Source: an uncultured Acidobacteriota bacterium (GTDB lineage: Bacteria; Acidobacteriota; Terriglobia; Acidiferrales; UBA7541). From it: a DNA stretch of 64,000 bases. The DNA lies in assembly GCA_963736725.1 (NCBI GenBank), contig CAVTPW010000007.1:83387-147386 (forward strand), read 5' to 3'. Under the pieces are notes generated by a model. It worked only from the letters and a program-made list of their open reading frames with translations. It searched no databases and was not told where the DNA came from. Below are positions 3,470 through 35,766 of this stretch, piece after piece. Within the stretch, counting starts at the first letter, position 1, and every line of letters starts with the position of its first letter. The position numbers were made by a program, and so were the translations under genes.

Positions 3470-4339
3470 TCAAGGATGCGGAGCGGCTTGCGTAGGAAGC
3501 AAGCGAATCGAGACGACGAAGCTGCCGCGCTGTTTCCCGGTCAGTTGAAACTGTGCGGTGTTATCCGCGCCGCCGCTGCTGGACGTGCGTGCGGAACTTC
3601 CGCCGGCGAGTTCGGCAATATCCGGGGCCAGATTGTGGGCTTCAAGACCAATCTTGGCGGTCGTGCCGTGGATGCGGACAATGAGCGTGCGGTGGTCGCC
3701 GGTTACGAGCGGCGAAGAATTAGCTTCCAGCGTCAACTCCACAAAGCGGATCGAAAAACGCTCGGAATCCTGCTTGCCGCAGGTGACCACGACCGAAGCG
3801 TTGCCGGAGTCGAGTTCGGAGGGCGGAAGAACGACCAGCGAGGTTGGCGAGGATGCGAGGACCAGGGCGGGCAGGCCGGCAATGGTGACTTTGTTGGCGT
3901 CGGCATCGCCGCAGAACGAGCGGCCGGAGAGTTCGAAGCGATCGCTCAGGGATGCGACACGAGGCGCGGCGGAAATTTCGATGGAAGGCGAGGCGGCTTC
4001 GGTGGGGCTGAGGATGGTGGTATAGACGCGCCCGGGATGGCTGGCGAGAACCGCGGAGATCACGCCGGGATTCAACGGAGCTACAAACAGAGCGCGCCCG
4101 GTCGCGTCGGTCGTGACGCGATCGCCGTTGGAGAAATCCACGCGCACGCCAGGAGTCAGGCGGCCGTTCACGTCGAGCACCGCGAGGGTGGAGTGTTCGC
4201 CGGAGACGATTTTGCGGGGGAGCAACAGAATTCGGGCGGCGGAGGCAGGCGGCGGTTGCTGCGCGGGAGCGGACCGGCTCAGGGTCAGCGTGACCACGCA
4301 AAGAAAGGCGAGCACAGCGGGAATGCGGCGCCGGGGCAT
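3470..4339 (-). CDS. Secreted hypothetical protein with beta-sandwich (Ig/IPT-like) segments
   Basis: ATG at 4339 gives MPRRRIPAVLAFLCVVTLTLS (signal peptide). Beta-rich body includes TTDATGRALF and NKVTIAGLPALVLASSPTSLVVLPP. Confidence 0.7.
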   Translation of the reverse strand: MPRRRIPAVLAFLCVVTLTLSRSAPAQQPPPASAARILLLPRKIVSGEHSTLAVLDVNGRLTPGVRVDFSNGDRVTTDATGRALFVAPLNPGVISAVLASHPGRVYTTILSPTEAASPSIEISAAPRVASLSDRFELSGRSFCGDADANKVTIAGLPALVLASSPTSLVVLPPSELDSGNASVVVTCGKQDSERFSIRFVELTLEANSSPLVTGDHRTLIVRIHGTTAKIGLEAHNLAPDIAELAGGSSARTSSSGGADNTAQFQLTGKQRGSFVVSIRLLPTQAAPHP

Positions 4340-4406
4340 GTTTGGATTGTAGCGAAAAACGGAACGTATTACGTCAGGGGCTATTTCCCATCGGTTCGGG
4401 CGAACC

Positions 4407-32074: not shown

Positions 32075-32135
32075 GAAGCACTCCGAGAATGCTTGGAGAA
32101 GTCTACTTCAAGCAGCAGCGCTGCGGACAGTGGGC

Positions 32136-32163
32136 GAGGAACGGCCAAAGGCCTGGAATGACG
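32136..32163 (-). repeat. Degenerate CGTC-tagged palindromic repeat
   Basis: Plus strand GGCC-AAA-GGCC-TGGAATGACG; minus strand begins CGTCATTCC. Confidence 0.4.
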
Positions 32164-32197
32164 AAGACCGTCCGGCGTGAGCGCCAGGCATCACTCA

Positions 32198-32716
32198 TCA
32201 CTGCACCACCAGCGTCAGCGTGACGCCGTGGGTTACACCTGGAGATGTGGCGACGACGTTTACCGCGTAGGTGCCCGCTGGAGTGTTGAGCAACGTTGGG
32301 GTTGAAGGTGGCGGCGTGGGAGCCGAGCCGGAACCTCCTCCGCCGCAACCGGCGATGGAGGTCGAGATGACGGCGAGGGAGAGGACCAGCAGGAACACTG
32401 AGGCTTTGGTTCGCAGGCCGGCGAGAGCGCGGCGCAGAGGCCAAAATGGAAGGAAGGCGAGCAAACCGAACCAGGAGAGACCAGCGCAAACGGCGTGCGC
32501 GTTCAGCAAGAACTCCTCGTTCCCGGGCACCTCACGGCGCACGGTGGTTTGTGCCTGCGAGGTGGCTATCGCGACTGTTACGTTGGTGGCCGCGGTCGAG
32601 AGATTTGCGCTTGGCGGGGTGATGGCGCAGCTCGCGTATTGTGGCAGGTTCGTGCACGCAAATGTGACTGGCCCTGTGAATCCCCTGGCGGGGGTGACGG
32701 TGAGCGTGTAAGTACC
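32198..32716 (-). pseudogene. 5'-truncated C-terminal remnant of a large surface protein (split Ig-like domain, TM hairpin, internal lipobox)
   Basis: Frame is open 32767 to 32198 with no upstream ATG. It reads GTYTLTVTPARGFTGPVTFACTNLPQYASCAITPPS...GLSWFGLLAFLPFWPLRR...LLVLSLAVISTSIAGCGGGGS...TPAGTYAVNVVATSPGVTHGVTLTLVVQ. Resemblance ends abruptly at ~32717. Confidence 0.75.
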
Positions 32717-32775
32717 GTCGGGACATAGGGATCGGTCGGAAAGGGGGGCCGTACGACAACTAATCCCTTAACACC

Positions 32776-32976
32776 TCAATGCCTGGGCTTATAAAACATC
32801 AAGAATGTAAGGCCGCCAATCAAGATCCCACCCAGGAGGAAAATAACGCGCGTGCTTCGACGCATTGGCGAGCCAACATCTCGATCACGATCGTGACGAC
32901 CTATCGACGCAGGCACGGTGCCGCGGCCGGCGTAGTACAGCAACCATACCGTGACGAACAGGAAGAAAAATTTCAC
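32776..32976 (-). CDS. Possible small two-TM protein (66 aa) in a lower-GC islet
   Basis: GTG start; two hydrophobic segments (KFFFLFVTVWLLYY and VIFLLGGILIGGLTFLMF). Confidence 0.35.
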   Translation of the reverse strand: MKFFFLFVTVWLLYYAGRGTVPASIGRHDRDRDVGSPMRRSTRVIFLLGGILIGGLTFLMFYKPRH

Positions 32977-33186
32977 ATCGATATTCTATCTCCCCACAAC
33001 CAGTTGGATTGTAGATTTCTAAGTAAACAGGAGAAGTGAAATCTCGACTTAGGCGACCAGACGGTTCCGAGCGGGATTTCGAGGTACGACAATCCGCGAA
33101 AGGTTTGTTCAGGCTAATCAACAGACCGAATCGAAATAACCTAACGAATTCCGACTTGGCGGGGTACGCTATCCTCAGCTCTTGCC

Positions 33187-34615: not shown

Positions 34616-34887
34616 TTATCCATTCAACCAAAGGTGTCCGGCAACCAACAACACGACTCCGATCATTACCCAATAGTGCCAACCGCGTATAGTTCGGCGT
34701 TCCGGCAAGGCCTTGTCTCGCAACGCCAACCCCAGCACGATCTAAAGCAACAACAACAACAACGCCGCCGTCGCCGTCCATAGTCCCACCGTATTCGCTC
34801 GTCGTATGTGCCCAGATTGCATCGGCACCCAGGCGTGCAAGAACGACAAACCCGCCACCATATACCCCAGCCAATATGAGGTCGCAG
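34616..34887 (-). pseudogene. Decayed cytochrome b / ferric-reductase-like TM protein remnant
   Basis: Manual translation: LRPH/(1-nt deletion)YWLGYMVAGLSFLHAW...GLWTATAALLLLLL*(TAG 34742-34744)IVLGLALRD...RGWHYWVMIGVVLLVAGHLWLNG*. Two H-x13-H helices; 5' end missing. Confidence 0.65.
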
Positions 34888-34893
34888 GCAAAG

Positions 34894-35766
34894 TCAAAGG
34901 CTGCGGAGGAGTTTGTAGAGTTCGTTGGCGGAGTCGAAGTCGGCTTCCAGTTCGCGAGAGGCTAGTCGCTCGCGGATGTCGTCCAGGCGTTGGGCCAGCA
35001 GATCGAGGGCGGCGGAGAGGACTTCGTGGTTGGTCAGGACGATGTCGCGCCAGGTGGAGTAGGGGCTGCCCGCCAGTCGTAGGGAGTCGCGCAGGCCGGG
35101 GCCGGCTACCGTGATCGGCAGGCCGTTTTCATCAAGGCGATCGTAGAGGAACGAGCCTAGAGCTACGGCTACCAACTGTGGCAGGTGCGAGGCCAGGCCC
35201 ACGGCGTAGTCGTGCTGCTGGGCGCCCAGCCAAAGGGGGCGGGCGCCGATTTTCTCTACTAGCTTCAAGAAGGCAGCAACGCGCGGTTCGCGAGGGGCGG
35301 TGGATTCGCCAATGACGGCGTAGACGGCGTCGCGGAACAGGTCGGCGTCGGCGTGCACAAAGCCGGACAGTTCGCGGCCGGCCATGGGATGGCCGGGAAG
35401 GAACAGCGGGGCGGGTGGCTGGCTGAAGAGTTTCTCGGCGGCTTGGGAGATGCGGAGCTTCGTGCTGCAGGCATCGGTGATGAGCGCGCGACGGGGAGCG
35501 GAGCGGGCCAGCTCGGGAAGCAGATCCATGGTCACGCCGATGGGTAGAGCGATGTAGATCAGATCGGCGGTGCGGAGGGCAGGGGCGAGGTCGCCGCTGA
35601 ACGTTTCGTCAAAGGCGCCGCTGGAGTGGACAGCGCGGGCAACGGCGGGGCGGTCCCAACCGGTGATGTGGAGGCCGGTGGCGTGTTTGCGAAGGGCGAG
35701 AGCGAAGGAGCCGCCGATCAGGCCGGTGCCCAGGATGGTGACGCGGTTGATGAGGTGAGCAGTCAT
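34894..35766 (-). CDS. tyrA: Prephenate/arogenate dehydrogenase
   Basis: GTGLIGGS Rossmann motif, DACSTK, GHPMAGRE, HDYAVGLASHLPQ, GLRDSLRLAGS. Confidence 0.92.
   Translation of the reverse strand: MTAHLINRVTILGTGLIGGSFALALRKHATGLHITGWDRPAVARAVHSSGAFDETFSGDLAPALRTADLIYIALPIGVTMDLLPELARSAPRRALITDACSTKLRISQAAEKLFSQPPAPLFLPGHPMAGRELSGFVHADADLFRDAVYAVIGESTAPREPRVAAFLKLVEKIGARPLWLGAQQHDYAVGLASHLPQLVAVALGSFLYDRLDENGLPITVAGPGLRDSLRLAGSPYSTWRDIVLTNHEVLSAALDLLAQRLDDIRERLASRELEADFDSANELYKLLRSL

Follow-up and report, generated by a model that had tools for sequence, protein, structure and literature searches.

A predicted pseudogene remnant bearing a lipo-invert putative anchor tail in an uncultured acidobacterium

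The locus described here raises the question of why the last Ig-like repeat of a protein should be interrupted by two hydrophobic helices, the second of which ends in a lipobox, and whether such an arrangement could hold large secreted proteins at the membrane. The reading frame concerned lies in a stretch of 64,000 nucleotides from an uncultured Acidobacteriota bacterium, hereafter referred to at its full length as the window. The initial annotation had described it as a 5'-truncated copy of an Ig-like domain split by a transmembrane hairpin with an internal lipobox, and as a candidate for an undescribed mechanism of surface anchoring. The best explanation of the locus and its family, to which a probability of roughly 0.8 is assigned, is that the frame represents the pseudogene end of an Ig-repeat protein with a lipo-invert membrane anchor tail.

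The remnant frame and its closest relative

The open frame is found on the minus strand at 32767-32201 (189 codons), with a stop codon at 32198-32200 and an in-frame upstream stop at 32768-32770. Its translation agrees exactly with the order of elements first read at the locus, i.e. Ig strands, helix 1, basic loop, helix 2 with IAG-C, linker and two strands, and the features are collected in Table 1. The Ig part runs from the middle of strand B to the strand preceding the insertion and includes the conserved Cys pair C38/C47. Helix 2 occupies 32404-32348 and is followed by Cys141 (32347-32345) and then by GGGG; the match to the lipobox pattern is LAVISTSIAGC, and IAG-C is preceded by 19 uncharged residues and RR..R.K.

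Table 1. Features of the remnant frame in the window
Feature	Position	Strand	Basis
Remnant frame, full extent; no ATG	32198..32767	-	185-bit match to homolog profile
18 read-in codons GISCRTAPLSDRSLCPDG, outside the domain	32714..32767	-	Alignment to relative L001
Deletion junction ...GACGGTACT|TACACGCTC...	32709..32713		Alignment to L001; soil-metagenome contigs
Terminal Ig-like repeat, N-terminal part, TYTLTVTPARGFTGPVTFACTNLPQYASCAITP...NVTVAIATS	32558..32713	-	Translation, profile, homolog alignment
Variable linker from Ig part to helix 1; contains GTG 32542	32483..32557	-	Translation, alignment
Hydrophobic helix 1 GLSWFGLLAFLPFW, predicted stop-transfer	32441..32482	-	Helices predicted at the equivalent position in homologs
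Basic loop PLRRALAGLRTK, net charge +4, predicted cytoplasmic	32405..32440	-	Family loop charge average +3.9
Hydrophobic helix 2 ASVFLLVLSLAVISTSIAG and lipobox IAG-C	32345..32404	-	Cys in 162/162 tails
Gly/Pro-rich linker GGGGSGSAPTPPPSTPTLLN after Cys	32285..32344	-	GGG after Cys in 136/161 tails
Final two beta strands of the Ig-like repeat, TPAGTYAVNVVATSPGVTHGVTLTLVVQ, stop directly after	32201..32284	-	Homolog strands, pLDDT 82-98

The protein closest to the frame, P0001, is 93% identical and is encoded on two soil-metagenome contigs (L001 and L002), which are 97% identical to the window over the neighbouring prephenate dehydrogenase, DUF4440 and AraC-type regulator genes and a 66-aa ORF. 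The alignment to L001 stops at its position 3799 and restarts at 4382; 582 bp (L001 3800-4381) are thus missing from the window at about 32711, and the junction shows 1-nt microhomology. Lost with these 582 bp are the beginning of the coding region, as seen in the relative, and the first strands of the split repeat, which are gone from the window copy, and the 18 codons at 32767-32714 are, according to the same alignment, former upstream non-coding DNA joined to the domain by the loss of the 582 bp. The truncation noted at the outset is therefore confirmed by comparison with a nearly identical chromosome segment. The copy of the relative is itself already dead, being spread over three reading frames, lacking a signal peptide and carrying a frameshift inside the last two strands. 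An assembly artefact at the window junction was considered and ruled out, as contigs from independent soil metagenomes span the same junction.

The window copy has no ATG and no passenger, and a stop codon ends its frame 18 codons ahead of the domain. Positions 32198-32767 are, from the sequence evidence, a pseudogene remnant of the C-terminal end of a secreted acidobacterial Ig-repeat protein, and the gene is taken to have lost its signal peptide and passenger before the 582-bp deletion. With its 5' part deleted, and the signal peptide and the passenger lost earlier, the window copy cannot serve as an anchor. The remnant is surrounded by ordinary chromosomal genes, with CoA-transferase subunits downstream.

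Several other features of the region were recorded. Long ORFs overlapping the remnant in other frames, at 32271-32711 (plus) and 32103-32489 (minus), are by-products of high GC, and one ORF overlapping the remnant is what the frameshifted P0001 of the relative runs into. Just upstream of the frame, at 32764, contigs of two soil metagenome runs show a one-base insertion polymorphism (an extra C). A lower-GC island extends over 32760-33180 (0.47-0.53, against about 0.60-0.65 around it) and contains the 66-aa ORF at 32776-32976 (minus), which has two hydrophobic segments, is conserved, is called as a gene in L002 and gave no Pfam match. A second strain-variable spot occurs 2 kb from the remnant, at 34616-34897 (minus), where L001 encodes a 118-aa 'MerR' call consisting of an HTH part and a hydrophobic C-terminal part. 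The window shares just the last 34 residues of this call; it has a different segment of 104 bp against 267 bp in L001, and a stop where L001 reads Gln, by which the frame is split into ORFs of 51 and 40 aa.

The tail family, its split repeat and its conserved cysteine

A search of the NCBIfam models assigned the window frame to NF058595.1 ('invert_tail') with 59.7 bits against a cutoff of 37 (E 3.1e-16), the match covering profile positions 2-113 of 113 and window residues 62-189. The model is described as 'lipo-invert putative C-terminal anchoring domain-containing protein' and was matched by all 25 homologs of the first search, seven of which also matched choice-of-anchor D. In keeping with membership, the frame scores above the curated cutoff, lies at the extreme C-terminus and shows the succession of helix, basic loop, helix and lipobox Cys; the intact gene with signal peptide and passenger that function, though not homology, would require is lacking in the window copy. 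The frame is, on this match, a decayed member of a catalogued and uncharacterised family. Our own homolog profile found the remnant as its sole match in the six-frame translation of the window (the 185-bit match of Table 1), i.e. there is no second copy. Both scores are far above what would arise by chance.

The module had earlier been called undescribed, which holds only in part: NCBI already has a curated model that expresses the same anchoring idea, worded as 'putative'. The tail has thus been recognised by the NCBI curators as a putative anchor, apparently without publication as far as could be found. No paper on 'lipo-invert' or on a comparable internal or C-terminal lipobox was found in the literature searched, Pfam has no model covering the tail region, and the PDB, when searched by sequence, yielded nothing beyond spurious matches of low complexity to RAD23B, with no related solved structure by sequence. 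NF058595 begins with the strand that directly precedes helix 1 (window residue 62), and its profile therefore leaves out the first two thirds of the split Ig-like repeat. The recognition of the tail as an insertion into a repeat unit comes from the present analysis and goes beyond the span of the model; the tail should carry the annotation NF058595, with its upstream boundary extended to the whole split repeat.

The interruption of the repeat can be followed in members that contain several repeats. Upstream uninterrupted repeats (in P0036, P0082 and P0100) match profile positions 2-73 and then directly ~148-188. The terminal repeat matches 2-188 in one piece and is the sole one with positions 74-147, which correspond to the hairpin. 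In P0036, the loop of an ordinary repeat, '...TLTVQTASGTPAGTY...', gives way in the terminal repeat to '...TLTVTTTAPTT[helix-RRRR-helix]AACGGGNNNNTGTTTPGTPAGAY...'. The hairpin is, by this comparison of repeats, an insertion ahead of the final two strands of the terminal repeat, and the proposal of an Ig-like repeat split by a hairpin is upheld.

Structure prediction for two divergent members points to one fold for the two parts. In the AlphaFold2 model of the split domain of P0004 (mean pLDDT 86.3), six strands before the insert are predicted at ~95-98, the two helices at ~63-84 and the two strands after the insert at 94-98. The model of P0002, which belongs to the subfamily nearest the window (mean pLDDT 81.4), gives 86-96 for the strands before the insert, ~67-76 for the two helices and 82-97 for the two strands after it. 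Foldseek matches are single Ig-like or Fn3-like domains, such as a sialidase linker domain, a subtilase C-terminal domain and the S-layer protein SbsC, and the alignments span about 189 of 193 columns and therefore cover both halves. Thus, the view that both parts belong to one repeat unit and one beta sandwich agrees with the predicted strands on either side of the insert and with the structural matches across both, and a single predicted fold is supported.

The Cys at the end of helix 2 is kept in all 162 unique tails, where it should be noted that the metagenome members were ranked by a profile containing the CGGGG motif and that the 80 genome loci, which represent one subfamily, were found by patterns without the motif. 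Position -3 is mostly L/M, position -2 mostly A, and position -1 is G/A/S in the great majority of these tails. The conserved Cys agrees with a PROSITE-type lipobox pattern in 146 of 162 tails as compared with 12.7% of the other Cys residues of the same proteins, an enrichment of about 7-fold. The Cys is retained also in divergent subfamilies without GGGG (P0067, P0075, P0086, P0104), while GGG follows it in 136 of 161 tails. Among ordinary N-terminal lipoproteins of the same genomes, CGGG was seen in three of 14 candidates, and those three are mutual orthologs, a sample too small to show whether the motif is typical of such lipoproteins.

The environment of the Cys is similarly regular. Ahead of it come an uncharged stretch (median length 18 residues, IQR 17-19) and, before that, a loop whose median length is 11 residues and whose net charge averages +3.9; the mean charge is +1.7 over the 15 residues before helix 1 and 0.0 over the 15 residues that follow the Cys. 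The part after the Cys has a median length of 46 residues (IQR 44-47), and the Cys lies 33-52 residues from the C-terminus (up to 66 among 161 tails) in proteins of 400-2400 residues. Of the 162 tails, 160 have a pair of Cys residues in the Ig part, as would suit an oxidising location outside the cytoplasm.

The C-termini of P0049, P0067 and P0075 keep the helix, the Arg cluster, the second helix and S-C and have no GGGG. Their final strands differ (...TLQGQSGT...LSITVP), and by these features they appear to form a subfamily of their own within the module.

The size of the family was assessed by searching 1.84 billion cluster representatives with the profile of alignment A2, which comprises the split domain and the tail in 188 positions. 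The search gave 26,982 matches at E<=1e-3, 14,697 at E<=1e-10 and 1,626 at E<=1e-30, counts that include repeat proteins, as many of the top matches are multi-repeat Ig proteins without a tail. A complete split domain, one in each, was found in 84 of 174 collected proteins, always as the last domain; 80 of the 84 end within 3 residues past the domain, and the exceptions include the frameshifted P0001. A genome scan with the subfamily alignment A3 and with peptide patterns without the lipobox yielded 182 confirmed stretches. In the best 80 of these 182 loci, the stop codon lies 0-2 residues after the end of the domain in 80 of 80, so that the C-terminal position holds for metagenome and genome members alike. 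All of the best 80 loci belong to Acidobacteriota, as Terriglobia or Acidobacteriaceae MAGs, a taxonomic result biased towards one subfamily because the scan used the alignment of that subfamily.

Several paralogs per genome are common among the best 80 of the 182 loci, at times in tandem. Three tail-bearing paralogs are arranged head to tail in L026 (1-3174, 3334-7251, 7406-11941) and two in L031 (2-1837, 1918-6942), from which it follows that the family expands by tandem duplication. In L041 (6860-7318), and in short frames in L072, L067 and L055, the tail is out of frame with an upstream tblastn match; these cases may be frameshifts or assembly errors, and decay may be common in the family.

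A signal-peptide-like N-terminus was found in 51 of 60 complete frames, P0082 being a clear example, and the passengers are varied, including FG-GAP/VCBS repeats, SBBP propeller repeats, ASH/Cep192-type Ig domains and chitobiase C-terminal domains. Together with the genome scan (best 80 of 182 loci), the signal-peptide-like N-termini support a recurrence of the tail on secreted proteins of acidobacteria, in line with the initial annotation, which spoke of surface proteins. Within 6 kb on either side of the best 80 of the 182 loci, no recurrent gene family was found besides paralogs, and this lack of a dedicated partner gene nearby fits the use of the housekeeping enzymes Lgt and LspA.

Proposed anchoring and alternative explanations

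An intact member comprises an N-terminal Sec signal peptide, a varied passenger, tandem Ig-like repeats and a last repeat with an insert of ~75 residues in the loop ahead of its final beta hairpin. The signal peptide would direct the passenger through Sec, hydrophobic helix 1 would act as a stop-transfer segment, the Arg/Lys-rich loop would remain cytoplasmic, and helix 2, oriented like a lipoprotein signal peptide, would re-export the last ~46 residues, consisting of a Gly-rich tether and the two strands that complete the Ig sandwich. The hairpin would then hold the last Ig domain at the outer face of the inner membrane, and diacylglycerol attached to the Cys by Lgt would most likely provide a further hold. 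This membrane topology of the tail is likely.

The individual steps involving the lipoprotein pathway differ in how well they can be argued. The Cys is located where Lgt acts on ordinary prolipoproteins and lipidation is therefore plausible; the curated NCBI name also hints at lipid anchoring, and modification of the internal Cys by Lgt is believed to be somewhat probable. More doubtful is a subsequent cut by LspA at this site, after which the passenger would be held, through strand complementation, by the lipidated two-strand peptide that remains, as had been suggested. The passenger would keep the two-helix hairpin after such a cut, and the lipid would therefore not obviously, or not solely, be the tether. 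That Lgt and LspA together would produce a last Ig-like domain made of two polypeptides, namely the passenger and a ~46-residue, N-terminally lipidated two-strand peptide, is a rather unlikely outcome, and no publication on the split-domain or strand-complementation aspect was found in the literature. A version split between two genes is absent from the best 80 of the 182 genome loci, where the sole tail-only frame is a frameshifted gene. If the two-polypeptide reading were true, a lipid anchor of the lipoprotein pathway would be found at the C-terminal end of a large secreted protein; the hairpin may then be removed and the protein sorted to the outer membrane.

The same helices may instead represent a plain two-helix inner-membrane anchor within the last Ig domain, with no role for Lgt or LspA; the Cys would then owe its conservation to something else, such as helix packing, a disulfide or acylation that is not followed by cleavage. 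AlphaFold2 predicts two helices, each 15-23 residues long, and the hairpin alone would be sufficient to anchor the protein. The median of 18 uncharged residues before the Cys would suffice to span the membrane stably; for a lipoprotein signal this is rather long, and the stretch could equally be a stable membrane helix. However, such an anchor has no need for an invariant Cys exactly at the end of a helix, whereas the residue is found in 162 of 162 tails behind a preferred L/M, A and G/A/S, with the lipobox pattern about 7-fold enriched over other Cys residues in the same proteins and with a Gly-rich tether after it, as in ordinary lipoproteins. An anchor of this plain kind is thus considered unlikely as compared with the lipo-invert tail.

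A further proposal takes helix 1 and the basic cluster as a sorting signal of the PEP-CTERM or GlyGly-CTERM type that is cut by a dedicated sortase-like enzyme, by which the passenger would be freed from the hairpin and the lipidated two-strand peptide would become the only tether. The succession of helix 1 and the Arg cluster does resemble the transmembrane segment and basic cluster of such signals, and choice-of-anchor D, whose name refers to its occurrence in proteins with different anchors, is present in some members. Nevertheless, no conserved motif or column is seen between the Ig part and helix 1 in the alignments A1, A2 and A4, the putative signal is not at the extreme C-terminus, as about 65 residues come after the basic cluster, and no conserved enzyme gene occurs within 6 kb on either side of the best 80 of the 182 loci. 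Sorting of this type therefore appears improbable.

Concerning the window copy itself, a functional product could be imagined to start at GTG 32542, the sole in-frame start codon, and to yield a membrane lipoprotein of 114 aa, made up of both helices with the loop between them, the Cys and the two strands. The frame from this GTG to the stop is intact in the window and frameshifted in the relative. Since the ortholog of the relative is frameshifted in the same part, the product does not seem to be under selection; moreover, no Shine-Dalgarno sequence was found upstream of the GTG, a promoter scan of the remnant gave no promoter-like site, and no RNA run is listed. The two strands without the rest of the sandwich would have nothing to fold onto, and among the best 80 of the 182 genome loci the one frame with a tail alone is a frameshifted gene. 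A working 114-aa protein is hence very improbable, and the pseudogene reading of the window copy is preferred.

Finally, a chance gene fusion or an error of assembly, by which one gene's end would have been linked to the lipoprotein signal of the gene after it, suggested by the fact that the loop, helix 2 and Cys look exactly like the N-terminus of a lipoprotein gene, is already refuted by the occurrence of the same one-frame arrangement in >160 distinct sequences from many genomes and metagenomes, by the presence of just two strands, never a whole domain, after the Cys and by the match of the flanking halves to one repeat unit.

Significance and relation to known systems

As a dead gene fragment of a soil acidobacterium, the locus itself is unimportant; it is a pointer to an abundant and uncharacterised anchoring module. 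The family is very large, with thousands of cluster representatives, though many of these are tail-less repeat proteins, and it is concentrated in the Acidobacteriota, which are among the most abundant soil phyla. The tail sits on big, repeat-rich secreted proteins whose anchoring is poorly understood. Processing of the internal lipobox, if true, would be the first case of a signal near the C-terminus being used by the general lipoprotein pathway, and would provide a natural domain that is held together across a cleavage site.

The tail resembles the classical SPII signals of lipoproteins, processed by Lgt, LspA and Lnt, in its positive stretch, its hydrophobic stretch, the L-A-G/A/S-C sequence and the Gly-rich tether, and the predicted orientation of helix 2 is that of a signal peptide. 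A lipobox of the form [LVI][ASTVI][GAS]C, an uncharged stretch and positive charges are all present in the tail. Unlike the SPII signals, which are N-terminal, it lies hundreds to thousands of residues from the N-terminus, past a stop-transfer helix, and merely ~46 residues come after its Cys.

C-terminal sorting systems include PEP-CTERM/exosortase, GlyGly-CTERM/rhombosortase, PGF-CTERM/archaeosortase and LPXTG/sortase. The likeness to these systems consists in a C-terminal module on varied secreted passengers, in a membrane helix followed by a basic cluster and in the presence of several paralogs per genome. Sortase-type signals carry a signature motif directly before the helix and end the protein; the tail, in contrast, shows no such motif before helix 1 and runs on for about 65 residues past the basic cluster, no dedicated enzyme gene is found near the tail loci (6 kb, best 80 of 182), and its lipid would come from the general lipoprotein pathway.

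The tail also recalls the donor-strand complementation of chaperone-usher pilins, which appear among the weak matches of Foldseek. In both systems, the last strand or strands of an Ig-like fold are supplied by a separate part of the chain. Unlike in the pilins, the completing strands of the tail are part of the same translation product, and complementation would take place in trans only if LspA cuts.
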